A DNA stretch of 38,216 bases from an uncultured Anaerolineales bacterium (lineage in GTDB: Bacteria > Chloroflexota > Anaerolineae > UBA7937 > B3-Chlor). The stretch covers positions 30,505 to 68,720 of the forward strand of contig CAYGQI010000001.1 of the NCBI GenBank assembly GCA_964351925.1, read 5' to 3'. Below, in pieces: positions 27 through 29,415 of this stretch. The notes beneath the pieces were generated by a model. The model ran no database searches. It saw only the letters and a program-made list of their open reading frames with translations, and was not told the DNA's origin. The position numbers and the translations under genes are program-made. How positions within the stretch are numbered: position 1 is the stretch's first letter; every line of letters starts with the position of its first letter.

Positions 27-3000
27 ATGCCCGAGAAGTACGTCGAGCGTCAGGTAGCCGCAGCCGCGGAGAGGGTGTCCCAGACGGTGTCAGCCGAAGC
101 CACAACGTCTCTTCCTGTGGCTGTCACTCAGGCTGTTGTTCCTCCTGCGCCAAAGGTGGCTACACGTCTTTCAACAGAGGACTGGACTAGGGGAGTCAAG
201 GGAGCATCTTCGAAGGATGAGCTGCTCACTGCCTTGGACAACGGGCCTACCTTCAATGTCGAGAAGGTCGAGGGCCGCTTCCCGCCAGACCTACGAGAAG
301 GACGCTACATCCAGAGAGATCAGGCCGTGGCTCGTCTGGAAAGGGACGAGGCTGGTAAGCTGGTCAAGAAGAATGGCCGTTACACGATCCAGGTGGCCAT
401 GGGGATGGTGGACGAGGTTGAACTCACATCACTCAGACGAGTGTTGGCTCATGAGTGGGCACACTCTCTTGGCGATGCCATGCCCGTTGAAGTGGCGGCT
501 CTATGGAACGATGCCGAAGTCATGGCGGAGGATGTGCTCAGGTTCTTCAATGGAGAGCTGGATGAGACATCGGACGTCTATGCCCTAATCGCTGGCTTCG
601 CTTCTGACGAGCCAGACGAGTTCGCTGGTGTCATCACCTCGCTTCTTGGGCTGGCCACAGAGAAGGAAGCCAGAGCCAATGCTCGCAATATCTGGAGAAC
701 ATGGCTTCAGGCAACGCGGCCAGATGGCAAGTCGGTCCACTATCACTATGTCCAGACGACGTTCCGGGGACGTAGGGTGCTGGAGTCTCCTGAGACCTTC
801 ATGGAGTTCCTCGACAACTGGATCGGAGAGATGGAGCACTTGGGCATAGACGAGTCCAACATCGCTGCCATCCGCCAGCAGAAGATTGATCTTCAAGGCT
901 TCATGGACATGAAGTCGGCTAACGCGGCCTCCCTTGGCATCGAGCCTCCACCAATCTATCGTGGTTACTCACTGACGCAGCCGAGAGTCAATCGCTATGA
1001 CCCCGGCACGCTGACATGGCTGCTGGGCACACAGGATGCTCTGGCTCGTCAGAAGCTGTACGAGTCCATCTTGGACACGTGGTCAGGAGCACTCACGAAG
1101 CAGTTGGCCGAGAACCCATCTTTGGGCAAGCTGATGGCGGGTTCGGACATCGACATCATCAAGTCCCTACGTAATGGGTTCGTGGACAGCAAGGCCAACG
1201 CGGCCCGTATCGCCATGAATGGTGGTGAGCACCCAGCAATCGGTACTTGGAAGGGAGCCCTACCAAAGACCAACGAGTACATGCTGGACTACCAGACGTA
1301 CACGCGCTTCGATGAGTTCATGAAGAACCTGTACCCGTTCTGGATGTTCCCTAGCAGGTCGATCCCATTCTGGGTGAAGACGATGGCAGACCAGCCGTGG
1401 ATTCCGGCGATGTACTACAAGTACACTCGTTGGACGAACCAGAACCTGATCCAGAAGGGCATGTACAATTCTCTCGGAGAGCCTCTACCATCTAAGAGAG
1501 GCATGATGCGCATCCCAGGCACGGACATCTGGGTCAACCCGCTGTCTCCGCTGTCCTTCCGCTATGCCTTGATGATGTTTGACAGGTCATTCGAGTACTC
1601 GGGCGATGAGCAGCTGGAGAGCATGTCTATGGGAGAGCAGGTGGTTGGATGGTTGCAGACGGTTACGCGAGCCGCTGGCCTTGACATGCCATTCTGGATC
1701 ACCAGCCCAGCAGCTTTGGTGGGTATCATGGACGCCAACAAGCTGCCCACCTATCCGCCATACGCACCTTTGGCTCTCATCCCGCGCTGGTGGATAAACT
1801 CGATGGCCGACAAGGTGAAGGTGTTGGATGTGGTGTGGGACGGCTTCTTGCATCCCGACGTGCCTTGGAAGGACAGCAACGTTGAGCTATGGATACTCAA
1901 CGACATCCTACGCCGCTTCGATGAGGCTGTGACAGACACAGAGAAGATGGAGATCATCAAGGAAGCCAAGGAGGCTCTGGGCTACCGAGAGGACAGTAAG
2001 GGCAACTGGCACCTGGCTCCCCGCAAGGACAGTCCATACTGGAATCAGGCCGAGCATGAGGTGGACAAGAGCGAGTACTTCCAAGAGGTAGCAGGCTACT
2101 TCACTGGCATGTACCCACAGCCCTTCACGGATGCCCAGGCAAACATCTATGCTGTCCGCAGCTACAAGAACTTCCTGCGCGACATGATCAACAACGAGAC
2201 CGGAGCGAAGATTTTCGGGCTCGATCCGATCGCAGAGAACCGCTACAACAACTATGTCGAGAAGGGCTTCAAGTCCCCAATCGGACAGGTGGCCAGCCTA
2301 TACAACAACATGCGCTGGGTAATGACTCCTGGTGGAGAGCAGCTGTATGGAGAGGACCGTAGAAAGGCCATCGCTGAGAGCATTCATGAGGACGAGGCAA
2401 CATCCGCACGTTGGGACGCCATCAACGAGGCCAACGGTTGGCTGGACGCGCAGCTGAAGCTCATTCCTTTTGGGTCAGAGACTGCGGCTACCGAGGACAT
2501 CTGGACCAAGTGGTCAGAGTGGCGCGAGCAGATAGAACGCGACCCGATGTACGCCGACGCTCGCCGTAGCTGGTCCGTAGGCTACAAGCCCGAGTCGATG
2601 CTCTTCGATCAGTACCGTAGGCAGTTCTGGTCATACATCACAGAGACTCGCCCTCAGTGGGACAAAGAGAACGGAGAAGAGTACAAGGTATGGCAGGGCC
2701 GTATAGCGGAGTGGGAGAAGCAAATCCCGATGATTGCCCAGGCCATCATCAATGCCATGGTCTCTGAGAAGGTCGTTCCGTCTGTGGGTGGGCGAGAGGG
2801 AGCTCGCATAGTCCCAGGACAGTCCTTGCCGATCGCAGGCCGTCAGGGTTTCCAGCGTTACATCGACATCGACAAGTTGAAGACCAAGTTGCTGCAAGAG
2901 GCTACACCTTCTGGGTACCAGATGTGGTCGAAGGACAAGGCCACGTTGTACACTGCCATGGACAAGGCCTACGACGAGCTGTACCTAAACAAGTTCTGGG

Positions 3001-4097
3001 AAGGCCGTTCAGGCATGAAGGGCTATGCTCTGACAGCATTCGATGAGCAGTTCTTTGCGACCGTGAAGCCTCCGTCAGATCAAGCTATCATCGACTACGT
3101 CCTAACCAACTACCCAGGTCGCTGGACCGATGAGGAGATCGCGCAGGCTTTGGAGCACTCCGCGGGCAAGGTAACGGCGGAAGAGCGCATGGAGCCAACA
3201 ACCGAATACGAGAAGCAGGTACAGGAAGTCTGGGACATCCTCAACTGGGCTGGACCAAGTGCTGGTAGAACCAAGTTGGAGGCCGCTTTGTCGAAGGTCG
3301 GCGGCAATGTCGAGTCTGTCACCACGTGGTACGACACCAATGGAACATGGGGAGCAGACCAGAGCAACCCGAAGGTCAAGACCAAGTTTGAGGCGTTCCT
3401 GTCTGACCTCCGCCGCGCGGCTAATCTTCTGGACCTGAAGCCACCAACCGGGCCTCAGTTGCAGGAGTTGGTTCAGGCCGAGGCCGACAACAACGCTTTC
3501 AAGGCCCAGATCGCCGGACAGTATGGGGAAGGCTTCTGGGACCTACTGACGCTCTATGCCACGACGTCAGACAAGGCTGAGAAGAAGAAGGTTCGTCGGG
3601 AGAACCCCGAGATCGACGCCTACTACAAGGCCAAGGATGCCTACGCTCCCGAGCACCAGATTTGGGCCAAGTGGTACAACCCAGACCTGTATCGTGGGGA
3701 GGGGGGCGGCGGTGGAACAGCGGGAGGGGCTTGGTCTAGCCTCACCAATCCTAGCCGCGCGGCGAGGGCGGGTGCTCCGAAGGGCGGAGGTGTGGGCGGA
3801 GGAAAGTCCACTGTCTCTGCCAAGGGAAGTTGGGTGCCGATCGGCTTCCGCAGTGCCAACTATCTGACCAAGACAGGCTCCGGGGGCGCATCTGCCCAGC
3901 CGGTCTACCCGAAGGGCTTCCAGGCCGTTGTGGGGAAGCTGGCGATGAGGGAGATCGAGGGTCTGGCTGCGACCGGAGCGCCTCTGTCTGGACCTACAAC
4001 CCAGTTCCTACAGAACCTGATTGGCAGGCACCCAGATTGGCGGGAGTTCATCGAGTCCATTCTGAGCGACAGTCGCCGCTTGCTTTCGTCCGTGTAG
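27..4097 (+). CDS. Giant virion morphogenesis protein, probably portal-type or a portal fusion; the 5' end may lie upstream of the window
   Basis: 1356-aa ORF directly upstream of the scaffold and major capsid genes. The frame is open back to nt 3, so the start is uncertain. HEWAH (HExxH) at nt 450-464. Gly-rich tract near the C-terminus (GEGGGGGTAGG, GGGVGGGKS). Confidence 0.5.
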   Translation: MPEKYVERQVAAAAERVSQTVSAEATTSLPVAVTQAVVPPAPKVATRLSTEDWTRGVKGASSKDELLTALDNGPTFNVEKVEGRFPPDLREGRYIQRDQAVARLERDEAGKLVKKNGRYTIQVAMGMVDEVELTSLRRVLAHEWAHSLGDAMPVEVAALWNDAEVMAEDVLRFFNGELDETSDVYALIAGFASDEPDEFAGVITSLLGLATEKEARANARNIWRTWLQATRPDGKSVHYHYVQTTFRGRRVLESPETFMEFLDNWIGEMEHLGIDESNIAAIRQQKIDLQGFMDMKSANAASLGIEPPPIYRGYSLTQPRVNRYDPGTLTWLLGTQDALARQKLYESILDTWSGALTKQLAENPSLGKLMAGSDIDIIKSLRNGFVDSKANAARIAMNGGEHPAIGTWKGALPKTNEYMLDYQTYTRFDEFMKNLYPFWMFPSRSIPFWVKTMADQPWIPAMYYKYTRWTNQNLIQKGMYNSLGEPLPSKRGMMRIPGTDIWVNPLSPLSFRYALMMFDRSFEYSGDEQLESMSMGEQVVGWLQTVTRAAGLDMPFWITSPAALVGIMDANKLPTYPPYAPLALIPRWWINSMADKVKVLDVVWDGFLHPDVPWKDSNVELWILNDILRRFDEAVTDTEKMEIIKEAKEALGYREDSKGNWHLAPRKDSPYWNQAEHEVDKSEYFQEVAGYFTGMYPQPFTDAQANIYAVRSYKNFLRDMINNETGAKIFGLDPIAENRYNNYVEKGFKSPIGQVASLYNNMRWVMTPGGEQLYGEDRRKAIAESIHEDEATSARWDAINEANGWLDAQLKLIPFGSETAATEDIWTKWSEWREQIERDPMYADARRSWSVGYKPESMLFDQYRRQFWSYITETRPQWDKENGEEYKVWQGRIAEWEKQIPMIAQAIINAMVSEKVVPSVGGREGARIVPGQSLPIAGRQGFQRYIDIDKLKTKLLQEATPSGYQMWSKDKATLYTAMDKAYDELYLNKFWEGRSGMKGYALTAFDEQFFATVKPPSDQAIIDYVLTNYPGRWTDEEIAQALEHSAGKVTAEERMEPTTEYEKQVQEVWDILNWAGPSAGRTKLEAALSKVGGNVESVTTWYDTNGTWGADQSNPKVKTKFEAFLSDLRRAANLLDLKPPTGPQLQELVQAEADNNAFKAQIAGQYGEGFWDLLTLYATTSDKAEKKKVRRENPEIDAYYKAKDAYAPEHQIWAKWYNPDLYRGEGGGGGTAGGAWSSLTNPSRAARAGAPKGGGVGGGKSTVSAKGSWVPIGFRSANYLTKTGSGGASAQPVYPKGFQAVVGKLAMREIEGLAATGAPLSGPTTQFLQNLIGRHPDWREFIESILSDSRRLLSSV

Positions 4098-4984: not shown

Positions 4985-5980
4985 ATGCCTAGCAATGTAA
5001 ATGAGACCGAGTATGCGAGTGCCGTAAAGACTTCTTACGAGCGCCGCTTGCTCACCCGAGCACTACCTCGACTGATCCACACGCGCTTTGGTGATCAGGC
5101 GAGAGTCAACCGCGGCTTCGGAACCCTTGAGTTCCGCAAGTACGCAGGTCTGTCAGCTGTGACGACTGCGCTGGACGAGGGCAACACCCCGAACAGCCAG
5201 CTTGCACCGAGCCTGTCTTCGATCACCATCACTCCTCTTTGGTACGGTGCTTGGCTCGGCTTCACAGACAAGATCGACATGGTCGCCTTCGACCCACTCG
5301 TCTCAGAAATGAGCGCGATCCTGGGAGAGCAGGCTGGTCTTTCGATCGACACGCTGACCCGCAACACCCTCGTGGCGGGAGCAACGGATGACTTCTCAAA
5401 TGGTGTGGCTGCTCGTGCCAACCTGGCCGCTGGCGACAAGATCGCCTACGCGGACTTCCTAGTTCAGATCGCTGAGTTGGAAGCAGGCAACGCACGTCCG
5501 GTCGATGGCCGCTACAAGGTCATCATCCACCCATACACGTGGGCAACGCTGATGCAGGATACGACCTTCGTGACCCTGTTCGCACGTGAAGCCAACAGTG
5601 CGATCCGCAGCGGTCTCGTGGGGACGCTTCTGAACTGCGACATCTACGTGTCAAGCAACGCAGCCAGCTACACACTTGCTGGTTCAGGCTCAGCCTACAC
5701 TGTTTACTCAGCGCTGTTCATTGGTGCAGAGAGCTACGGTGTCTACGGCATGGGCGACCTGACCCCGAACTTCAACATGGACGGGTCTGGTGCAGAGTAC
5801 AAGAACATGACCGGCATGAAGGTGAAGCCAGTCAACATCATCATCAAGGACCTGGGCTCAGCCGGAACGGCAGACCCATTGAACCAGCGCGGCACGCTTG
5901 CGTGGAAGTGCGCGCACATTGCCAAGATTTTGAACAGCGCGTGGATCAGGGACCTTGAGCACATCAACGACATGAGCTAG
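4985..5980 (+). CDS. Major capsid protein (HK97-fold type)
   Basis: 331 aa with a GAGGTG RBS. Position after the scaffold, and capsid-like sequence pattern (FRKY..L....LDEGNTP...PLWYG). Followed by a strong hairpin. Confidence 0.75.
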   Translation: MPSNVNETEYASAVKTSYERRLLTRALPRLIHTRFGDQARVNRGFGTLEFRKYAGLSAVTTALDEGNTPNSQLAPSLSSITITPLWYGAWLGFTDKIDMVAFDPLVSEMSAILGEQAGLSIDTLTRNTLVAGATDDFSNGVAARANLAAGDKIAYADFLVQIAELEAGNARPVDGRYKVIIHPYTWATLMQDTTFVTLFAREANSAIRSGLVGTLLNCDIYVSSNAASYTLAGSGSAYTVYSALFIGAESYGVYGMGDLTPNFNMDGSGAEYKNMTGMKVKPVNIIIKDLGSAGTADPLNQRGTLAWKCAHIAKILNSAWIRDLEHINDMS

Positions 5981-16755: not shown

Positions 16756-18300
16756 ATGACCCTCGGATACGGCGGCGACTTTACCTACACCTACAACAAC
16801 AAGCGTATCCACGTCTTCCACTCAGCAAGCAGCACTTGGGTGTGCCAAAGTGGTGGGGATGTGGAACTACTCGTGATTGCGGGTGGCGGTGGAGGAGGGT
16901 CAAGCTCTCCCACCTATTGGGAAGGTGGCGGTGGTGGAGCAGGCGGGCATATCTATGAGGCATCCCACACCGTAGCACCAGGGAACTATACCGTCACTGT
17001 AGGAGGGGGCGGAGGGACCAACAACAATGGCAATCCCTCCATCTTTGATACTCACACGGCGGTCGCGGGCGGGGCAGGAGGCGGTGGGGTCAACAACGAT
17101 CCTGGTAGTTCTGGAGGATCGGGCGGAGGCGGTGGGGCCTCTGGCGCTGCTGGTGCGTCTGGAACTAGTGATCAGGGATATGCCGGTGGTAATTCAACCA
17201 GCAACAATGGTGGTGGAGGCGGCGGATCAGGCGGAGTGGGCGGCTCTCCAACTACAGCTGGCGTTGGAACTTCCCGCAGTATCACAGGACTTGCTTACAC
17301 CTTCTCCAGTGGTGGAACCGGCAATAATGGAAGCTACGCTCGCGACAGTTACACGGGTCATGGTGGACCGGGCAGCAACACAAGTGGTGGGTCTGGAGGA
17401 ACTGGCGGATCGGGCGTGGTTGTATTGTCCTATGACTGTACGGACACGGCCTACATGTCTGCCGAAGGAACTGGTGGGACCATCACCGCAAGCGGGCTAG
17501 ACAGAATCCACACCTTCACATCCTCTGGCACTTTCACTCCAGTAGGAGGGGCAGGCTACGCCAGAGTTCTTGTAGTGGGTGGAGGTGGTGGTGGAGGTAA
17601 TGGTGGTGGTGAGTGGGAGGCTGGCGGAGGCGGAGGCGGTCACGTCATGTATGACTCACTCTGCTACATCGGTGGGGCTACGACTGTCACAGTAGGAGCA
17701 GCAGTGGGAGCGGCGACTGTTGGTCAGAACTCATCCTTTGGTTCATACAACCTCTCGTTGGGAGGTGGGTACGGAGGTAGTTCATCTCCTGGCGGTCCTG
17801 GTGGTTCTAGCGGTGGCGGAAGCTATTCCCAGAGTGGGGGGTCTGTTCGAGCTGCTATCCCATTTGGGTATGTGGGAGCACATGGAACAAGTGGTCCCAA
17901 CTACGGTGGAGGCGGAGGCGGAGCTGGAGAGGTAGGAAACACGGATGGCGCTCGCTACGGCGGAGACGGTATCATCTGCACCATCTATGACGGCTCCAAC
18001 ATCTATTATGGCGGAGGAGGAGGAGGCGCTCCATCTGGCCCAGGGGGAGATGGGGGTGGTGGAACTGGAACAGGCGGGACCGGGGGCTCAGGTTCAGCCA
18101 ACACAGGCGGCGGCGGGGCAGGCGGCTACTCAAGTGGTGGAGGAAATGGCGGTAGTGGCATTGTCATCGTTCGCTATACTATCCTGCCAGTTGCCGCCCC
18201 TTGGCCAGACTTGATCGGATTGACACAATCGTCTGCTGGTCCCATGCAGACATCCATGAAATCAGCACCACGTAGGCGTAATAGGAACGCCTACTACTAG
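16756..18300 (+). CDS. Glycine-rich tail fibre-type protein with two tandem glycine-rich domains
   Basis: Two similar halves. Half 1: RIHVFHSASSTWV..VELLVIAGGGGGG...GNYTVTVGGGG...GSGVVVLSYD. Half 2: RIHTFTSSGTFTP..ARVLVVGGGGGGG...TTVTVGAAVG...GSGIVIVRYT. Confidence 0.65.
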   Translation: MTLGYGGDFTYTYNNKRIHVFHSASSTWVCQSGGDVELLVIAGGGGGGSSSPTYWEGGGGGAGGHIYEASHTVAPGNYTVTVGGGGGTNNNGNPSIFDTHTAVAGGAGGGGVNNDPGSSGGSGGGGGASGAAGASGTSDQGYAGGNSTSNNGGGGGGSGGVGGSPTTAGVGTSRSITGLAYTFSSGGTGNNGSYARDSYTGHGGPGSNTSGGSGGTGGSGVVVLSYDCTDTAYMSAEGTGGTITASGLDRIHTFTSSGTFTPVGGAGYARVLVVGGGGGGGNGGGEWEAGGGGGGHVMYDSLCYIGGATTVTVGAAVGAATVGQNSSFGSYNLSLGGGYGGSSSPGGPGGSSGGGSYSQSGGSVRAAIPFGYVGAHGTSGPNYGGGGGGAGEVGNTDGARYGGDGIICTIYDGSNIYYGGGGGGAPSGPGGDGGGGTGTGGTGGSGSANTGGGGAGGYSSGGGNGGSGIVIVRYTILPVAAPWPDLIGLTQSSAGPMQTSMKSAPRRRNRNAYY

Positions 18301-24190: not shown

Positions 24191-24389
24191 CAAGACACCA
24201 TGGAATGCCTTCATCATCTTGGATGAGGTCCTCGCCTCCTTTGGTGAATCTGGAGGAGGCGGTCCTAGTGGTGCAGCAATGCGAGTCCACTGGGGCAGGC
24301 TGGACAATCAGAGAGCTCATAGGCCAGGTGGAGGAGACTCAGTCTTCACCGCCGTTGCTGGAGCTACGAGGAAGAGGAAGAAGAGATGA
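24183..24389 (+). CDS. Hypothetical small ORF upstream of the endolysin
   Basis: 68 aa. ATGA overlap with the endolysin start. Low-complexity, basic C-terminus, no TM segment. Confidence 0.3.
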   Translation: MPSKTPWNAFIILDEVLASFGESGGGGPSGAAMRVHWGRLDNQRAHRPGGGDSVFTAVAGATRKRKKR

Positions 24390-25141
24390 TCCAAGGACAA
24401 GACTACTCACACTACAACGCCAAGGTGAACTTCCCGCTGGCCATCAAGAATGGTCAGAAGGTCTTCTACCTCAAGTCGTCCGAGGGCAACAACTGGAGCG
24501 ACGACACCTACGAGGAGAAGCGCCTGGCCTGCATCCCTACCAAGGCTCCCTTCGCTCCCTACCACTTCATGAAGATGGCCTACACGGCTGTCAGTCAGGC
24601 GGCATGGTTCAAGAAGTGTGCTCCAGACCCAACACCTCTTCCACCGATCGCAGACATCGAGCAGCACCCGGCTGAGCCGGACAACCTGCTCATCCCTATG
24701 GCCAAGAAGCGCTCACATGTACAAACGCTTCTCCTAGAGACCGAGAGGCTGTTTGGTCGCAGGCCCATTATCTACACTGGGGTCTACTGGTGGAAGGACA
24801 ACATCGGGGACGTGTCTTGGGCGAAGGACTACAAGTTCATCATCGCTGGCTACCTGTTCTTCAAGCAAGCCATCCCTGCCAACTTCAACATCTGGTGGCC
24901 AGGACCCCGCACCCTGTTCTACATCCCACGCGAGAACGTGATTGGATGGCAGTGGGCGGGCGACATCCCGAACATCAGCAATACCACATACCCCTGGTCT
25001 ACTGGAGCTCAAGACTTCAACGTGTTTGACGAAGTTCAGATCGCTGCTCTCGTGAGCGGCAGTACAGAGACGCCTCCGCTGACTGAGGCCGAGAAGCTTG
25101 ATCTCGTGTACAAGTGGTATCTCGAATCTCACGGAGGCTAA
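24386..25141 (+). CDS. Endolysin, glycoside hydrolase family 25 (muramidase)
   Basis: GQDYSHY (D-x-S-H-W/Y box), SSEGNNWSDDTY, APYHF, PPIADIEQ: the usual GH25 motif order. Confidence 0.75.
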   Translation: MIQGQDYSHYNAKVNFPLAIKNGQKVFYLKSSEGNNWSDDTYEEKRLACIPTKAPFAPYHFMKMAYTAVSQAAWFKKCAPDPTPLPPIADIEQHPAEPDNLLIPMAKKRSHVQTLLLETERLFGRRPIIYTGVYWWKDNIGDVSWAKDYKFIIAGYLFFKQAIPANFNIWWPGPRTLFYIPRENVIGWQWAGDIPNISNTTYPWSTGAQDFNVFDEVQIAALVSGSTETPPLTEAEKLDLVYKWYLESHGG

Positions 25142-25534: not shown

Positions 25535-25563
25535 TTGACAAACCTCAAAAAGAGGTGTATTCT
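25535..25563 (+). promoter_or_regulatory. Sigma70-like promoter for the tRNA array
   Basis: TTGACA (25535-25540), 17-nt spacer, TATTCT (25558-25563). The first tRNA starts at 25573. Confidence 0.55.
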
Positions 25564-25572
25564 TAGACAGTC

Positions 25573-25645
25573 CGAGGAATGGTGTAGACCGGGAGCACGC
25601 TAGCCCTGGGAGCTAGTGGCGGTGGTTCAAACCCACCTTCTTCGA
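25573..25645 (+). tRNA. tRNA-Pro(TGG)
   Basis: Acceptor CGAGGAA/TTCTTCG. D GTGT/GCAC. AC stem CTAGC/GCTAG, loop CCTGGGA (C33). T arm GGTGG-TTCAAAC-CCACC. Confidence 0.75.
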
Positions 25646-25647
25646 CC

Positions 25648-25720
25648 TGCGGGTTAAGTTGGAGTGGAACCACGGTGGCCTCATAAGCCGCGTAGACGAG
25701 TTCAATTCTCGTACCCGCTA
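25648..25720 (+). tRNA. tRNA-Met(CAT) type (Met, fMet or Ile2 not resolved)
   Basis: AC stem GTGGC/GCCGC, loop CTCATAA. T arm ACGAG-TTCAATT-CTCGT. Acceptor GCGGGT/ACCCGC with an unpaired 1:72 or an irregular acceptor-D junction. Confidence 0.6.
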
Positions 25721-25727
25721 CCTTCAT

Positions 25728-25799
25728 ACCAGAGTGGCGCAACGGTAGCGCAAGCCGCTGTTAACGGCGAGGTTGCAGGTCCGAATCCTGCCTTTGGTG
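25728..25799 (+). tRNA. tRNA-Asn(GTT)
   Basis: Acceptor ACCAGAG/CTTTGGT. D GCGC/GCGC. Loop CTGTTAA. T arm GCAGG-TCCGAAT-CCTGC. CCA encoded. Confidence 0.85.
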
Positions 25800-25847
25800 C
25801 CAAGAAGTCGAGTACCGCTTACCTTTACAACTGATCGGCAATAACAG

Positions 25848-25920
25848 GCCAGTGAAGCACAATCGGCAGTGCGGTCGCCCTGTAAGCGACAGGCAGTGGG
25901 TTCGACTCCCACCTCTGGCT
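25848..25920 (+). tRNA. tRNA-Thr(TGT)
   Basis: Acceptor GCCAGTG/CTCTGGC (one mismatch). D GCAC/GTGC. AC GTCGC/GCGAC, loop CCTGTAA (C33). T arm GTGGG-TTCGACT-CCCAC. Confidence 0.8.
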
Positions 25921-25988
25921 CCTGAGAGTTCTGCACATCAGCGTTGAAATCTGGCTGTTCTCACGGCGCGCTAAAGAGACAGCAACAC

Positions 25989-26060
25989 GCAGGCATGGGG
26001 TAAAGGATAGCCCAGCACCCTCCTAAGGTGCGTGTGAGCGTTCGAGTCGCTCTGCTTGCT
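25989..26060 (+). tRNA. tRNA-Arg(CCT)
   Basis: Acceptor GCAGGCA/TGCTTGC. AC GCACC/GGTGC, loop CTCCTAA. T arm GAGCG-TTCGAGT-CGCTC. Confidence 0.85.
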
Positions 26061-26064
26061 CCTT

Positions 26065-26136
26065 GCTTCTGTAGATAACGGACAGTCGCTCCGGCTTCTA
26101 ACCGGATGAGTGCAGGTTCGAATCCTGCCAGAAGCT
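26065..26136 (+). tRNA. tRNA-Arg(TCT)
   Basis: Acceptor GCTTCTG/CAGAAGC. AC TCCGG/CCGGA, loop CTTCTAA. T arm GCAGG-TTCGAAT-CCTGC. Weak D stem. Confidence 0.75.
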
Positions 26137-26202
26137 CCTGCCGGGGGTCTCTCTTTGAGAGCACGGCGTCCGAAATTCCCTCTGCCCCCGAGGGTCGGCT
26201 AC

Positions 26203-26273
26203 GCATCTGTAGGCTAATGGATGACCGTTGGGCCACGGACCCAAAGGTGAGCGTTCAAGTCGCTCCAGATGCT
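26203..26273 (+). tRNA. tRNA-Arg(ACG)
   Basis: Acceptor GCATCTG/CAGATGC. AC TTGGG/CCCAA, loop CCACGGA (C33). T arm GAGCG-TTCAAGT-CGCTC. Confidence 0.75.
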
Positions 26274-26317
26274 CCTGTGGAAATTGACAGAGTCACCACT
26301 CAAAGAACTGTCCACAC

Positions 26318-26389
26318 AGACTGTTCGTCTAGCGGCCAGGATAAGCGTCTCCAAAACGTTTGACGGGGGTTCGAGTCCCTCACGGTCTG
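26318..26389 (+). tRNA. tRNA-Trp(CCA)
   Basis: Acceptor AGACTGT/ACGGTCT. D GTCT/GGAT. AC AGCGT/ACGTT, loop CTCCAAA. T arm GGGGG-TTCGAGT-CCCTC. Confidence 0.8.
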
Positions 26390-26395
26390 CCTCGT

Positions 26396-26468
26396 TAGGT
26401 GGTGGTGTAACCGGCAAGCACAGTAGGCTGTGGACCTGCGGGAGAGGGTTCAAGGCCCTCCCATCTGA
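26396..26468 (+). tRNA. tRNA-His(GTG)
   Basis: Acceptor TAGGTGG/CCATCTG. D GTGT/GCAC. AC GTAGG/CCTGC, loop CTGTGGA. T arm GAGGG-TTCAAGG-CCCTC. The -1 position is T opposite A73, not G-1:C73. Confidence 0.8.
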
Positions 26469-26502
26469 CCTAGCAAGAATAGTCACTTAAAGTGACTACA
26501 AT

Positions 26503-26573
26503 GGTTCTGTGGCGTAACGGCAGCGCAACTCCCTGTCGAGGAGTAGGCGAGGGATCGACACCCTTCAGGACCG
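26503..26573 (+). tRNA. tRNA-Asp(GTC)
   Basis: Acceptor GGTTCTG/CAGGACC. D GCGT/GCGC. AC ACTCC/GGAGT, loop CTGTCGA. T arm GAGGG-ATCGACA-CCCTT (A54). Confidence 0.8.
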
Positions 26574-26578
26574 CCTTT

Positions 26579-26650
26579 GGGCGCGTGATGTCAACGGGAG
26601 CATGCTGCACCTGCAATGCAGCCGTGGGAGTTCAAATCTCCCCGTGTCCA
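26579..26650 (+). tRNA. tRNA-Ala(TGC)
   Basis: Acceptor GGGCGCG/CGTGTCC with the G3:U70 alanine identity pair. AC CTGCA/TGCAG, loop CCTGCAA (C33). T arm GGGAG-TTCAAAT-CTCCC. Confidence 0.85.
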
Positions 26651-26657
26651 CCTTCAT

Positions 26658-26728
26658 TCAAGAGTCGGCTAACGGTAGGCCGTAGGGCCTTGGACCCTAC
26701 TGTGGAGGTCCGAATCCTTCCTCTTGAA
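26658..26728 (+). tRNA. tRNA-Gln(TTG)
   Basis: Acceptor TCAAGAG/CTCTTGA (U1:A72). D GGCT/GGCC. AC TAGGG/CCCTA, loop CCTTGGA (C33). T arm GGAGG-TCCGAAT-CCTTC. Confidence 0.8.
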
Positions 26729-26733
26729 CCTAC

Positions 26734-26818
26734 GGAGTGGTGGCAGAGCGGCTGAATGCGCTTCCCCGCTAAGGAAGTTGGGGTAACTCCCACGTTGGTT
26801 CGAATCCAACCCTCTCCG
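26734..26818 (+). tRNA. tRNA-Ser(GCT)
   Basis: Acceptor GGAGTGG/CCTCTCC (one mismatch). AC CTTCC/GGAAG, loop CCGCTAA (C33). Long variable arm TTGGGGTAACTCCCAC. T arm GTTGG-TTCGAAT-CCAAC. Confidence 0.8.
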
Positions 26819-26824
26819 CCTCGT

Positions 26825-26894
26825 GGATGTATGGTGTAACGGTGCACGCATGACTGTAGATCATCAGGGCGTGGTTCGACTCCACGTGCATCCA
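26825..26894 (+). tRNA. tRNA-Tyr(GTA), short variable arm
   Basis: Acceptor GGATGTA/TGCATCC. D GTGT/GCAC. Loop CTGTAGA. 4-nt variable region. T arm CGTGG-TTCGACT-CCACG. A73. Confidence 0.75.
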
Positions 26895-26901
26895 CCTTCG
26901 A

Positions 26902-26972
26902 TCTCTCCTAGTGCAACGGTAGCACGCTTGGCTCTGAACCAAGTAATCTACGTCCGAATCGTGGGGAGAGAA
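26902..26972 (+). tRNA. tRNA-Gln(CTG)
   Basis: Acceptor TCTCTCC/GGAGAGA (U1:A72). D GTGC/GCAC. AC CTTGG/CCAAG, loop CTCTGAA. T arm CTACG-TCCGAAT-CGTGG. Confidence 0.85.
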
Positions 26973-26977
26973 CCTAT

Positions 26978-27050
26978 GCCGCTGAAGCTAACCCAGTGGA
27001 AGCGTCTGCCTGAAGAGCAGAAGGGGTCGGCGCGACACCGACTGGCGGCA
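26978..27050 (+). tRNA. tRNA-Phe(GAA)
   Basis: Acceptor GCCGCTG/TGGCGGC. AC TCTGC/GCAGA, loop CTGAAGA. T arm GTCGG-CGCGACA-CCGAC (non-canonical T-loop). Confidence 0.75.
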
Positions 27051-27056
27051 CCTTAC

Positions 27057-27143
27057 GGAAGAGCTAACATCGGTGTGTGCAGCCGTCTTGAAAACGGTAG
27101 TCCGGTGAAACCCGGATTGGGAGTTCAACTCTCTCCTCTTCCG
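27057..27143 (+). tRNA. tRNA-Ser(TGA)
   Basis: Acceptor GGAAGAG/CTCTTCC. AC GCCGT/ACGGT, loop CTTGAAA. Long variable arm with a CCGG/CCGG stem. T arm GGGAG-TTCAACT-CTCTC. Irregular D arm. Confidence 0.75.
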
Positions 27144-27148
27144 CCTCT

Positions 27149-27219
27149 GGCTTCTAGTCCGAACGGCTAGGAAGTCGCCTGCAAAGCGACCGTAGAGAGT
27201 TCGACTCTCTCAGAAGCCT
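27149..27219 (+). tRNA. tRNA-Cys(GCA)
   Basis: Acceptor GGCTTCT/AGAAGCC. AC GTCGC/GCGAC, loop CTGCAAA. T arm GAGAG-TTCGACT-CTCTC. Discriminator U73. Confidence 0.85.
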
Positions 27220-27225
27220 CCTCGT

Positions 27226-27300
27226 GCGCCCATAGGAGAATCGGCATATCCGCTGGTCTTAGAAACCAGGTCAATGGTGGTTCGAATCCACCTGGGCGTA
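27226..27300 (+). tRNA. tRNA-Leu(TAG), short variable arm
   Basis: Acceptor GCGCCCA/TGGGCGT. AC CTGGT/ACCAG, loop CTTAGAA. 6-nt variable region. T arm GGTGG-TTCGAAT-CCACC. A73. CCA encoded. Confidence 0.75.
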
Positions 27301-27381
27301 CCAAAAGGCCCTCGGAAGTACAACGGGTGGTCGGCACAACAGTGCCTTCTGGCTTGGGGACGCCAAAAACAATCCCCACCA

Positions 27382-27456
27382 GCATCCTGGCCGGTAAGGT
27401 GATCGGAGACTGTCTTATAAACAGTCCACAATCTGGTCCGATGCCAGAAGGATGCA
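27382..27456 (+). tRNA. tRNA-Ile(TAT)
   Basis: Acceptor GCATCCT/AGGATGC. D CCGG/TCGG. AC GACTG(T)/(A)CAGTC, loop CTTATAA. T arm TCTGG-TCCGATG-CCAGA. Confidence 0.7.
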
Positions 27457-27461
27457 CCTAT

Positions 27462-27532
27462 GGTCTCATCCGCTAAAGGGAGGCGAGCGGCCCCTCAAGC
27501 CGCAAATGCGATTTCGAGATTCGCTGAGACCA
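27462..27532 (+). tRNA. tRNA-Glu(CTC)
   Basis: Acceptor GGTCTCA/TGAGACC. D CGCT/GGCG. AC GCGGC/GCCGC, loop CCCTCAA (C33). T arm GCGAT-TTCGAGA-TTCGC with a U.U at the loop-closing pair. Confidence 0.7.
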
Positions 27533-27537
27533 CCTAC

Positions 27538-27610
27538 GTCACCATCGTCTAACGGTTCAGGATGGGACCCTTTCAAGGTCTGGATCGGAGTTCGAATCTC
27601 CGTGGTGATA
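27538..27610 (+). tRNA. tRNA-Glu(TTC)
   Basis: Acceptor GTCACCA/TGGTGAT. AC GGACC/GGTCT, loop CTTTCAA. T arm CGGAG-TTCGAAT-CTCCG. Confidence 0.8.
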
Positions 27611-27615
27611 CCTGC

Positions 27616-27687
27616 GCATTCGTAGCTGAGCGGTAAAGCAGTTCGTTGCCAACGAACAGATCGTGGGTCCAAATCCCACCGAATGCT
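27616..27687 (+). tRNA. tRNA-Gly(GCC)
   Basis: Acceptor GCATTCG/CGAATGC. AC GTTCG/CGAAC, loop TTGCCAA. T arm GTGGG-TCCAAAT-CCCAC. Confidence 0.85.
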
Positions 27688-27693
27688 CCTCGT

Positions 27694-27767
27694 GCCTGTG
27701 TAGCTCAATTGGTCAGAGCGCTTCTCCTACAAAGAAGAGGCTGGTGGTTCGAGCCCACCCAGAGGCA
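27694..27767 (+). tRNA. tRNA-Val(TAC)
   Basis: Acceptor GCCTGTG/CAGAGGC (one mismatch). D GCTC/GAGC. AC CTTCT/AGAAG, loop CCTACAA (C33). T arm GGTGG-TTCGAGC-CCACC. Confidence 0.8.
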
Positions 27768-27771
27768 CCTT

Positions 27772-27846
27772 GCTCTCATAGCCCAACATGGCAGAGGCGG
27801 CAGCTTCAAAACCTGTCCAGTGCTAGTTCGAATCTAGCTGGGAGCA
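27772..27846 (+). tRNA. tRNA-Leu(CAA), short variable arm (anticodon-arm register uncertain)
   Basis: Acceptor GCTCTCA/TGGGAGC. AC GCAGC/CCTGT (C31.C39 mismatch), loop TTCAAAA. An alternative fold gives a 9-nt loop. T arm GCTAG-TTCGAAT-CTAGC. A73. Confidence 0.6.
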
Positions 27847-28027
27847 CCTGCGGCTGAGACTCGGTGAAACGCCGAGGGAAGGGAGAACAAACCGGAAAGT
27901 AGACGGTCTCCTGTGCGTAAGTGGGAAACTCGACCCAGAGTAGCGAGGGTGTCCAGCGGTGAATGGGTATTGCCAGCGCAAGCCCCTACTGGGCGGTGAC
28001 ACCGAAACCCACCTTGAGGCCGCACAT
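27847..28027 (+). ncRNA. Unclassified structured RNA embedded in the tRNA array (not a tRNA)
   Basis: 181 nt between two complete tRNAs with no plausible + strand ORF. Terminal helix TGCGGC (27849-54)/GCCGCA (28019-24). Internal hairpins: CTCGG-TGAAACG-CCGAG (27860-76), GGAGA..CCG-GAAAGTAGA-CGG..TCTCC (27882-911), GGTGTC (27948-53)/GACACC (27998-28003) enclosing TTGC-CAGC-GCAA (27970-81). Confidence 0.5.
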
Positions 28028-28100
28028 GCTCTGCGAGCCAGTCGGTCGAAGGCACTCGTCTGATACACGAGTTTGCGTGGTTCAACTCCACGGCGGAGCA
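28028..28100 (+). tRNA. tRNA-Ile(GAT)
   Basis: Acceptor GCTCTGC/GCGGAGC. AC CTCGT/ACGAG, loop CTGATAC. T arm CGTGG-TTCAACT-CCACG. Confidence 0.8.
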
Positions 28101-28139
28101 CCTGTTTCAGTTGTTTAGCAATATTGCTAAACATCTCAT

Positions 28140-28211
28140 ACCAGCATAGCTCAGATGGAGAGCAAGCGGCCTTTACCCGCGAGGTCGGGGACCCGAGCCC
28201 CCCTGCTGGTA
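28140..28211 (+). tRNA. tRNA-Lys(TTT)
   Basis: Acceptor ACCAGCA/TGCTGGT. D GCTC/GAGC. AC (A)GCGG/CCGC(G), loop CCTTTAC (C33). Aberrant T arm GGGGA-CCCGAGC-CCCCC. Confidence 0.65.
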
Positions 28212-28218
28212 CCTAAAT

Positions 28219-28291
28219 GCTTCTGTGGCGCAATCGGCAGCGCAACCGGCCCTTAACCGGAAGGCTGGAGGATCATACCCTCCCAGGAGCA
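28219..28291 (+). tRNA. tRNA-Lys(CTT)
   Basis: Acceptor GCTTCTG/CAGGAGC. D GCGC/GCGC. AC (A)CCGG/CCGG(A), loop CCCTTAA (C33). T arm GGAGG-ATCATAC-CCTCC (A54). Confidence 0.75.
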
Positions 28292-28296
28292 CCTGT

Positions 28297-28369
28297 GCTT
28301 CGGTAGTTGAGTAGGCAAAACACCCCTTTCGTAAAGGGGAGGACAGAGGTTCGAAGCCTCTCCGAAGCT
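28297..28369 (+). tRNA. tRNA-Thr(CGT)
   Basis: Acceptor GCTTCGG/CCGAAGC. AC CCCCT/AGGGG, loop TTCGTAA. T arm AGAGG-TTCGAAG-CCTCT. Confidence 0.85.
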
Positions 28370-28455
28370 CCTTGGGTAAGGCTCCTAGCCGACACGGCAT
28401 CAGGCGCGGGGCTGACCGATGGGACATAACCGTGGATCACCCCATCTCCCAACAT

Positions 28456-28528
28456 GCCACTGTAGCTCAGCCGGTAGAGCGCCGACTCGGTAAGTCGGAG
28501 GCCGACGGATCATCACCGTCCTGTGGCT
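28456..28528 (+). tRNA. tRNA-Thr(GGT)
   Basis: Acceptor GCCACTG/CTGTGGC (one mismatch). D GCTC/GAGC. AC CCGAC/GTCGG, loop TCGGTAA (C33). T arm GACGG-ATCATCA-CCGTC (A54). Confidence 0.8.
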
Positions 28529-28533
28529 CCTAT

Positions 28534-28604
28534 GCGGGCTTGGTATATGGGTTGTGCCTCAGCCTTCCAAGCTGATGAAGCGAGTCCGAATCTCGCAGCC
28601 CGCT
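28534..28604 (+). tRNA. tRNA-Gly(TCC)
   Basis: Acceptor GCGGGCT/AGCCCGC. AC TCAGC/GCTGA, loop CTTCCAA. T arm GCGAG-TCCGAAT-CTCGC. CCA encoded. Confidence 0.85.
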
Positions 28605-28615
28605 CCAAGAAAGAG

Positions 28616-28650
28616 AAGACCCCAGGTTGTTTGCCTGGGGTCTTTTCGTT
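28616..28650. terminator. Bidirectional intrinsic terminator between the convergent tRNA array and the - strand operon
   Basis: AAGACCCCAGG-TTGTTTG-CCTGGGGTCTT: 11-bp perfect stem. TTTCGTTT follows on the + strand and a T-rich CTCTTTCTT follows on the - strand. Confidence 0.8.
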
Positions 28651-29415
28651 TCAGATCGACTTGCGTGTCCACTTGCTGTATGGCTCCAACTTCTGGAACA
28701 GGTTTTGGAGTATCTCGACGTCCTTCTTGTTGTGCTCCACGATGAAGCCCAGAGCAGTCTTATCTCCATACCCCGCCTCCATCCACAGTTCGATGTCAAC
28801 GTTGTCCTTCTCTCCGGTCTTGCCCTGCAAGCGCAAGAAGCGAGACACGGCTCCGAGATTGCGCCTGTGTAGTCTCAAGTTGGAGCGGGCGCGGTAGAAG
28901 AGATCGAAGTGGTAGATGGAACCATACTCTGGAAAGGGCAGGTCCCAGAACAGCGCACGGCTCCGCATGTATGGTATGTCGAAGCCGGTCCCATAGAAGG
29001 TGGCCACAATATGCACGTCCTGTATGGCCTCCAGCAGTTCGGTAACGATTCGCTTGTCTCGTAGCTTGGGGTCGGTACATTCTTTCGGCGTGATGATCCC
29101 ATGACGGGGCCTCTTCTCATCCTCAACCTTCATGAACCACGACAACATGAAGCCGTGATTGGCGGCTAGGTCGGTGGTCTCGATGTCAAGGAAGCCGATC
29201 TTCATGCCCTGCTTGCGGAACCAGGGGATAGCCCTCACCGGCACTTCCACGTCAGGGTCATTCTCGTGACGCATATCGTTCAGCCGGTTGGCTACCGATC
29301 GTTCAGTGCGGTCCATCCTGACCGCCATAGTCCTCTGGCTCAGGCCCTTCTTGAAGAGCCGCTTCAGTTCTCGTTCCTCCGCCTTCGTCCACTTCTTCGG
29401 CTTGTAGTCATCCAT
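28651..29415 (-). CDS. DEDDh (DnaQ/RNase H-like) 3'-5' exonuclease with an N-terminal Myb/HTH-like segment
   Basis: ExoI FLDIETTD, ExoII FYGTGFDIPY, ExoIII HNKKD. N-terminal WTKAEERELKRLFKKGLSQRTMAVRM. Confidence 0.7.
   Translation of the reverse strand: MDDYKPKKWTKAEERELKRLFKKGLSQRTMAVRMDRTERSVANRLNDMRHENDPDVEVPVRAIPWFRKQGMKIGFLDIETTDLAANHGFMLSWFMKVEDEKRPRHGIITPKECTDPKLRDKRIVTELLEAIQDVHIVATFYGTGFDIPYMRSRALFWDLPFPEYGSIYHFDLFYRARSNLRLHRRNLGAVSRFLRLQGKTGEKDNVDIELWMEAGYGDKTALGFIVEHNKKDVEILQNLFQKLEPYSKWTRKSI

Follow-up and report, generated by a model that had tools for sequence, protein, structure and literature searches.

Here we describe a non-coding, non-tRNA segment that lies on the plus strand inside a phage tRNA array and that folds on its own, in prediction, into a closed structure of several helices. 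The segment, hereafter the element, fills the gap between tRNA-Leu(CAA) and tRNA-Ile(GAT) in a 38,216-nt stretch of DNA (contig CAYGQI010000001.1, positions 30,505 to 68,720; hereafter the window) that was assigned to an uncultured Anaerolineales bacterium and whose gene content is phage-like. We tentatively favor the reading that the element is a phage-specific, non-tRNA structured RNA, carried within a polycistronic tRNA precursor and freed by tRNA processing, like RNA C and RNA D of phage T4. That it is instead a passive spacer is nearly as likely.

Position, predicted fold and proposed release of the element

A first-pass annotation, made from the sequence alone, had pointed to an unusually long interval between these two tRNA genes. 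The interval is present, although it measures 179 nt (27849-28027) and not the 181 nt first given. The annotation had also reported neither an open reading frame (ORF) on the plus strand nor a cloverleaf, and both statements hold: stop codons occur in all three plus frames of the element, and ARAGORN remained negative when relaxed to an 80% threshold and when allowed introns of up to 300 nt.

The folded core of the element spans 27849-28024 and is followed by a 3-nt tail, CAU. Pair probabilities were taken from the ViennaRNA ensemble (Table 1). The end pairing noticed at first sight (TGCGGC, 27849-54, with GCCGCA, 28019-24) was recovered and extends to a helix of 7 bp, P1, with a mean pair probability of 0.96. 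P1 encloses four to five hairpins with good support and closes a predicted four-way junction, whose other arms are hairpin A, hairpin B and a domain that holds hairpins C and D/E. Most of the hairpins that had been proposed by eye are likewise in the ensemble, namely CTCGG-TGAAACG-CCGAG (1.00), GGAGA/TCTCC (0.91) with its inner CCG/CGG (0.99), and GGTGTC/GACACC (0.93) around TTGC-CAGC-GCAA (0.94). In contrast, the proposed GGG/CCC helix (27923-25/27934-36) reached a probability of only 0.03, as GUGGG at 27921-25 pairs instead with CCCAC at 28008-12 (0.96). Altogether, six helices exceed a probability of 0.9, and the fold was unchanged when both flanking tRNAs were included in the folding. Hairpin A may be regarded as having T-arm-like proportions, with 5 bp, a 7-nt loop, a closing G-C pair, and U1 and A5 in the loop.

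We next compared this structure with chance. A 7-bp end helix was found in 0.67% of shuffles (p about 0.007). Folding of the whole element gave z = -1.67 to -1.83 on the plus strand (p about 0.05-0.075) and z = -0.15 on the minus strand. As a calibration, the 31 real tRNAs of the array gave a mean z of -1.67, with a range of -3.7 to -0.4. Since the z-score of the element equals that of the real tRNAs beside it, folding energy says little either way: the modeled thermodynamic signal is typical of real structured RNA, yet too weak to serve as proof of one.

The array (25573-28607) runs on the plus strand and contains 31 tRNAs, of which 28 were called by ARAGORN with default settings, two more by Rfam (26978-27050 and 28140-28211) and one, tRNA-Glu(CUC) at 27463-27535, by ARAGORN in relaxed mode. 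It is preceded by a promoter-like site and followed by a terminator-like hairpin, and thus it reads as what looks like a single transcription unit. On the plus strand, TTTTCGTTTC then follows this hairpin (28616-28653), so that the hairpin is likely to terminate transcription in both directions, from the array and from the convergent gene at 28651-29415.

In our model, the promoter-like site upstream of the first tRNA is where transcription would start, and it would stop at the hairpin behind the last tRNA. Because the element is located within this apparent single unit, tRNA processing would release it, which is in line with what had been proposed from its position. From established bacterial tRNA maturation we infer that its 5' end would be set by removal of the tRNA-Leu 3' trailer after ...ACC (27848), and its 3' end by RNase P cleavage at G28028, which would leave the CAU tail. 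The product would measure about 176-179 nt, and its paired ends and short tail of 3 nt should make it resistant to exonucleases and allow it to accumulate, as RNA C and RNA D do in T4. As regards the tRNAs themselves, most of those in the array end in CC followed by T (U in the RNA), so that CCA is incompletely encoded and the terminal A must be added after transcription. Our leading guess as to any activity is that the element may be a tRNA-related accessory RNA, for example a binding partner of, or decoy for, a tRNA-recognizing factor, rather than an enzyme.

Structured RNA or passive spacer

The alternative that survives best is that the element has no function of its own. An insertion or recombination event, for instance, could have left it behind. 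It would be tolerated, or mildly selected, solely for its self-folding, which would keep it from interfering with the folding and processing of the adjacent tRNAs, and it would be degraded after processing. This possibility stands only slightly behind the one that we prefer. The search for relatives found no homolog by any route.

No homolog of the element was found with blastn (11-nt words) among INPHARED phages and PLSDB plasmids, and megablast with 6 kb around the element returned no relatives. Exact, gapped and stem-wildcard descriptor patterns had no match in IMG/VR or in GTDB genomes, and neither did six degenerate codon patterns, which were derived from the open antisense frame and tile the element, in IMG/VR, JGI metagenomes and GTDB genomes. 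A six-frame pseudo-protein search, meant to catch spurious ORFs called over homologous DNA, gave no match among 5.8 billion predicted proteins, while phmmer with the antisense frame returned low-complexity matches only among 1.84 billion representatives.

We also used the genomic context as an anchor. A pattern built from the short-arm tRNA-Leu(CAA) retrieved 26 loci from IMG/VR and JGI, and the element was absent from all 26 arrays according to blastn and nhmmer. R1, a structure model of the element, was run on most of these arrays and matched only the element itself. Among the 26 loci, the tRNA-Leu closest to that of the window is carried by a groundwater contig of similar G+C content (L050). 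The neighbor pair tRNA-Val(UAC)/tRNA-Leu(CAA) is conserved in Streptomyces phage TunaTartare.

The anchor itself deserves a description. The short tRNA-Leu(CAA), found in the window (27772-27848), in L023 (3078-3152) and in L025-L050, lacks the long variable arm of bacterial leucine tRNAs and has either a mismatch at 31/39 in the anticodon stem or else a 9-nt loop. Its core, TTCAAAACCTGTNCAGTGNNAGTTCGA, is conserved in TunaTartare and in the 26 IMG/VR and JGI loci, where it often stands beside tRNA-Val(UAC). In another phage array (L028), the short tRNA-Leu(CAA) is followed by a tRNA-like unit of about 130 nt (3479-3606) that ARAGORN does not call; its acceptor stem, D-arm and T-arm (GAAGGTTCGAATCCTTC) are normal, but its anticodon/variable region holds about 55 extra nt.

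About ten Logan contigs, from the runs ERR43347xx and ERR38043xx, represent the same phage, and the element is 100% identical in every recovered contig that covers it. Since these copies do not differ and stem from a single phage, they provide neither conservation nor covariation evidence. The nearest phage relatives, recognized through the RNase H-like and lysozyme genes that flank the array (35-63% protein identity), lack the whole tRNA array. Together with the failure to find homologs, with a folding z-score that is borderline, and with the fact that a G+C-rich sequence of this length folds well anyway, these results weigh against a dedicated structured RNA; the absence of homologs in any collection, the lack of variation among copies and the borderline z-score all fit a passive spacer. 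They also bear on the first-pass idea of a new class of non-coding RNA, which would need relatives; blastn and nhmmer were among the searches run, and no route gave any.

The other spacers of the array were also informative. They had been described as mostly 4-7 nt long. They are indeed mostly short, but the usual length is 2-5 nt, and once the three tRNAs missed by ARAGORN at default settings have been added, eight spacers besides the element measure 32-84 nt. Every array spacer longer than 30 nt is self-closing, and these spacers are unrelated in sequence; the 64-nt spacer, for instance, has the paired ends UGCCG/CGGCU, and the 42-nt spacer UGUGGA/UCCACA. The array of L050 shows the same pattern of self-closing, unrelated spacers, with similar closed units at 890-966 (77 nt) and 1553-1679 (127 nt). 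Spacers that close on themselves but share no sequence fit a generic requirement for self-folding better than a specific function.

There are, however, three arguments against a passive spacer. Firstly, a 179-nt multi-helix fold with a 7-bp closing helix that is rare in shuffles exceeds what insulation needs, and the other long spacers are far shorter. Secondly, phage genomes are compact and most spacers of this array occupy only a few nucleotides. Thirdly, not all spacers of the array appear to be neutral, as revealed by a compensatory change in the 84-nt spacer (28372-28455). Between the window and a strain variant (L019), 28 differences were counted over 10,525 positions, and 17 of the 28 fall within this spacer. 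Despite these 17 changes, all 18 predicted pairs are kept in the variant: two by a double compensatory change (GAUGGG/CCCAUC to GAGAGG/CCUCUC), while two others change from G-U to G-C. These compensatory changes suggest that at least one non-tRNA unit of the operon is under selection for structure. From its sequence, the 84-nt spacer looks like a structured RNA with fast-changing loops, and the hotspot could result from diversifying selection or from a swapped cassette. For the 179-nt element this evidence is indirect: it raises the prior but says nothing about the element directly.

Other candidate identities

A far less probable alternative is that the element is a miniaturized relative or mimic either of RNase P RNA as a whole or of the module with which that RNA binds the tRNA elbow. 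It would then act on phage tRNA precursors or bind them. Several of its purine-rich motifs resemble conserved regions (CR) of class A RNase P RNA (RF00010) and occur in the matching order: GGUGAAAC (27863-70) resembles CR-II, GGGAAACUCGACCCAGAG (27923-40) agrees with E. coli M1 229-246 at 15 of 18 positions (CR-III), and ACCGAAACCCACCUUGAGGCCGC (28000-22) is similar to ACAGAACCCGGCUUACAGGCCGGC, which comprises CR-V and the 3' strand of P1. Judged by eye, the pairing of UAAGUGGG with CCCACCUU would form a long-range helix like P4, and the P1 end pairing and the tRNA-linked context are shared as well. A pairwise collinear alignment gave z = 2.7 (p 0.003) with the RNase P RNA of one phage array (L054) and z = 2.3 with E. 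coli M1. In addition, the best match in the window to R2, a covariance model of the region from CR-II through P13 and P14 to CR-III built only from RNase P sequences, falls inside the element (27916-27999), and RNase P RNA genes do occur within tRNA arrays on some viral contigs.

More detailed comparison does not sustain this resemblance. There was no RF00010 match in the element, either at the gathering threshold (100 bits) or at E <= 10. The R2 match scores 10.5 bits (E 1.2), which is level with random matches, and its register differs from that of the pairwise alignment. A profile-based collinear alignment gave z = 1.8 (p 0.05), a value equaled by 2% of ordinary 176-nt windows of this phage. 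In the pairwise alignment, p was 0.05 and 0.24 for two further RNase P sequences. The element, with 176 nt against the 340-400 nt of class A RNase P RNA, is without helices P2, P3, P5, P15 and P18. Its P4-like helix has a bulge on the wrong (3') strand, whereas it is CR-I, GGAAAGUCC, that has the bulged U. This helix is also nested, while P4 proper is formed by GGAAAGUCC with CR-V (ACAGAA...CUUA) and makes a pseudoknot with P2. Finally, the resemblance had already caught the eye before the comparison was made. We consider the resemblance, as read from the sequence, not significant, and we hold it improbable that the element is a drastically reduced phage derivative or mimic of RNase P RNA (with P1, the P4-like helix and the CR-II-, CR-III- and CR-V-like motifs) that serves unusual phage tRNA precursors. 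If this were true, the element would be the smallest bacterial-type RNase P-like RNA known and, with the full-length RNase P RNAs in viral tRNA arrays, would mean that phages carry their own tRNA-processing RNAs.

These full-length RNAs are an observation in their own right. The motif scan of IMG/VR returned RNase P RNAs only, and at five loci (L054, L058-L060 and L062), apparently of one lineage, a divergent RNase P RNA lies inside a tRNA array (Table 1). The contigs are of high G+C content and viral by their IMG/VR listing. In L054, the part of the RNase P RNA that aligns with P1-P3 overlaps the 3' half of a tRNA (2841-2912). A literature search gave no report of a phage-encoded RNase P RNA.

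Largely refuted is the view that the element represents one tRNA gene, or two, in a decayed or highly aberrant form. The idea is not unreasonable in this array, which holds aberrant tRNAs that default tools miss (Glu(CUC) 27463-27535, Phe 26978-27052 with its odd T-loop, and Lys 28140-28213). In addition, the terminal helix has 7 bp, as an acceptor stem does, and hairpin A has the proportions of a T-arm. We built a covariance model from 29 tRNAs of the array (R3) and ran it with filters off. It finds all 31 tRNAs, but on neither strand of the element does it give a match that reaches 3.7 bits. The Rfam tRNA family (RF00005) had no match at E <= 10 in 27849-28027, and relaxed ARAGORN was negative too. 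Moreover, one terminal helix spans the whole 176 nt, so the element is not two units. The first-pass annotation had found no match to tmRNA, SRP RNA, 6S RNA, a hammerhead or a group I intron. Indeed, no Rfam 15 family matched the element at gathering thresholds, and searches at E <= 10 on 341 nt and 186 nt gave only two meaningless short matches. Resemblances seen by eye to hammerhead, HDV-like, T-box, TPP, cobalamin and SRP cores were dropped, as Rfam had no match for them.

Regarding the aberrant tRNAs, Glu(CUC) 27463-27535, the tRNA at 27694-27769 and Lys(UUU) 28140-28213 apparently have C at position 33 instead of the near-universal U. The tRNA at 27694-27769 is called Cys(ACA) by ARAGORN but reads as Val(UAC). 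In tRNA-Phe(GAA) (26978-27052), the T-loop is CGCGACA in place of TTCGAAT.

The first-pass annotation had also raised the possibility of a ribozyme. Small ribozymes that process phage tRNA trailers exist (the HDV-like 'theta' ribozymes), and a new self-cleaving ribozyme with a part in cutting the tRNA precursor would suit the position beside tRNA ends and the complex predicted fold, the only points in its favor. Nothing else points to catalysis by the element, and the idea is without support: at E <= 10, no Rfam 15 ribozyme family matched (hammerhead, HDV-like, twister, twister-sister, hatchet, pistol, glmS and others with a model), neither a hammerhead nor an HDV-like core threads through the element when read from the sequence, the other junctions of the array work without such an element, and there are no homologs to define a conserved core.

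Least probable of all, and effectively refuted, is that the element belongs to a minus-strand protein gene. A 103-aa ORF (28134-27823) is open across the whole element and is its only open frame, but it runs antisense through tRNA-Ile and into tRNA-Leu, is not called as a gene in any Logan contig, and has an S/P/R-rich composition. Low-complexity repeats apart, neither the 5.8 billion nor the 1.84 billion proteins searched include a homolog of it.

Known tRNA-linked RNAs and the phage setting

We also compared the element, as a candidate structured RNA of the tRNA operon, with known RNAs. GOLLD and ROOL, structured non-coding RNAs of unknown function, frequently have their genes beside tRNA genes in phages. 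They measure about 580-800 nt and are defined Rfam families, whereas the element has 176 nt and matches neither in Rfam. tmRNA, like the element, has paired ends and is a non-tRNA RNA present in some phage tRNA arrays (for example L035), but the element is without a T-arm-bearing tRNA-like domain and without a tag reading frame. The ARAGORN tmRNA search was negative at the default and 80% thresholds, and Rfam gave no tmRNA match.

YrlA and the Y RNAs, partners of Ro60, were considered because relatives of the phage (L014 and L015) carry a TROVE/Ro60 gene. Like the element, these RNAs have a closing stem between the 5' and 3' ends and are tRNA-related, and they are sometimes phage-encoded. YrlA has canonical T and D arms, the motif GNCGAAN0-1G and a Ro60 gene within 4 kb (PMC4201824). 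In the element, both arms are missing, a canonical T-arm included, and so is the motif. No TROVE domain was present in the ten proteins of the window that were scanned, nor among the genes called in L005 and L018; of the genome of about 68.7 kb, this covers the part within the window. The relatives themselves come from groundwater and have no tRNA array. They encode the Ro60/TROVE protein at 124-1704 (L014) and 404-1987 (L015), an RNase H-like protein with 45% identity, and transketolase-like, short-chain dehydrogenase and FtsH-like (AAA + peptidase M41) genes.

The T4 RNAs offer a different parallel. In T4, rnaC (139 nt) and rnaD (119 nt), also known as 'species 1 and 2', are annotated as small stable RNAs directly after tRNA-Arg. 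They share with the element a non-tRNA, non-coding character, the strand of the tRNAs and a position directly beside tRNAs in a phage tRNA cluster. All three are 120-180 nt long, and the ends of rnaC are predicted to be paired, as are those of the element. Taken as an operational grouping and not as a homology family, the T4 RNA C/RNA D kind would include the element in so far as it is a non-tRNA, non-coding segment on the tRNA strand within the unit. No sequence relationship was found: blastn between the element and rnaC or rnaD gave only chance-level matches of 7-9 nt, and R1 had no match in the T4 locus (L024). The 8-mer GAGUAGCG (27938-27945), which lies in the loop of hairpin C, has two copies in T4 RNA C (rnaC 32-39 and 91-98; blastn E 0.5), probably by chance. 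The T4 RNAs also differ from the element in other respects. Near its 3' end, rnaC bears a canonical T-arm (CCGGGUUCGAAUCCCGG), which the element lacks; the T4 RNAs are located at the end of the cluster and the element is internal; and the stability of the T4 RNAs has been shown, whereas that of the element is predicted. The biological roles of RNA C and RNA D are still unknown (PMC3014915).

In the window, the tRNA array sits between a structural block and a block of minus-strand genes (Table 1). Besides the RNase H-like gene, the minus-strand genes include a methyltransferase, a RecA-like gene, UDG and a family A DNA polymerase. At the start of the window, the ORF at 27-4097 (L022 1-6999) corresponds to the C-terminal portion of a gene that is very large and directly precedes the capsid gene. 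This gene exceeds 2,330 aa in public contigs, and the 1,356 aa scanned gave no Pfam match.

Table 1 Coordinates of the element, its predicted helices and other features (window positions unless a locus is named).
Feature	Position	Strand	Remarks
Element, non-tRNA non-coding segment	27849-28027	+	179-nt gap between tRNA-Leu(CAA) and tRNA-Ile(GAT)
P1, 5' strand, UGCGGCU	27849-27855	+	Pairs with 28018-28024; 7 bp, mean pair probability 0.96
Hairpin A, 5-bp stem CUCGG/CCGAG, 7-nt loop UGAAACG	27860-27876	+	Probability 1.00
Hairpin B, GGAGA/UCUCC (27882-86/27907-11), inner CCG/CGG, loop GAAAGUAGA	27882-27911	+	Probabilities 0.91, 0.99
Long-range helix, 5' strand, GUGGG	27921-27925	+	Pairs with 28008-28012; probability 0.96; encloses hairpins C and D
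Hairpin C, CUCG/CGAG, 11-nt loop	27929-27947	+	Probability 0.42; least certain helix
Hairpin D, GGUGUC/GACACC (27948-53/27998-28003)	27948-28003	+	Probability 0.93; encloses hairpin E
Hairpin E, tip UUGC-CAGC-GCAA	27965-27985	+	Probabilities 0.61, 0.94
Long-range helix, 3' strand, CCCAC	28008-28012	+	ViennaRNA ensemble
P1, 3' strand, GGCCGCA	28018-28024	+	ViennaRNA ensemble
tRNA-Leu(CAA), upstream neighbor	27772-27848	+	ARAGORN/Rfam; without long variable arm
tRNA-Ile(GAT), downstream neighbor	28028-28102	+	ARAGORN/Rfam
Sigma-70-like promoter match, TTGACA-17-TATTCT	25535-25563	+	10 nt 5' of first array tRNA; consensus match only
11-bp G+C-rich hairpin	28616-28644	Strand-neutral	Directly after last tRNA (end 28607); consensus match only
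Non-tRNA spacer, 66 nt	25923-25988		Array tRNA model finds nothing
Non-tRNA spacer, 64 nt	26139-26202		Array tRNA model finds nothing
Non-tRNA spacer, 42 nt	26276-26317		Array tRNA model finds nothing
Non-tRNA spacer, 78 nt	27304-27381		Array tRNA model finds nothing
Non-tRNA spacer, 84 nt	28372-28455		Between tRNA-Thr(CGU) and tRNA-Thr(GGU); cf. L019 9215-9298, minus strand
Capsid protein	4985-5980	+	Structural module
Glycine-rich protein	16756-18300	+	Structural module
GH25 lysozyme	24386-25141		
RNase H-like gene	28651-29415	-	Convergent to tRNA array
Class A RNase P RNA in array	L054 2876-3257		The five loci score 110-140 bits; threshold 100
Class A RNase P RNA in array	L058 7979-8360		As above
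Class A RNase P RNA in array	L060 7965-8346		As above
Class A RNase P RNA in array	L062 1235-1616		As above
Class A RNase P RNA in array	L059 1-213		As above

The concept of tRNA-punctuated, non-tRNA stable RNAs is not new, having been known since T4 RNA C and RNA D, and the element is best filed as a new, sequence-unrelated example of the non-tRNA RNAs that some phage tRNA operons contain. It is an orphan from one phage that by itself leaves current knowledge unchanged, and a function is not yet separated from a tolerated, self-folding spacer. If it is a real stable RNA, it would be a sequence-unrelated addition to the roughly 50-year-old puzzle of the non-tRNA RNAs in phage tRNA operons. Candidate roles of such units include insulation within the precursor, decoys for host defenses that target tRNAs, and help in processing, and an operon with five such units, one of which shows a compensatory change between strains, would provide a compact test system.

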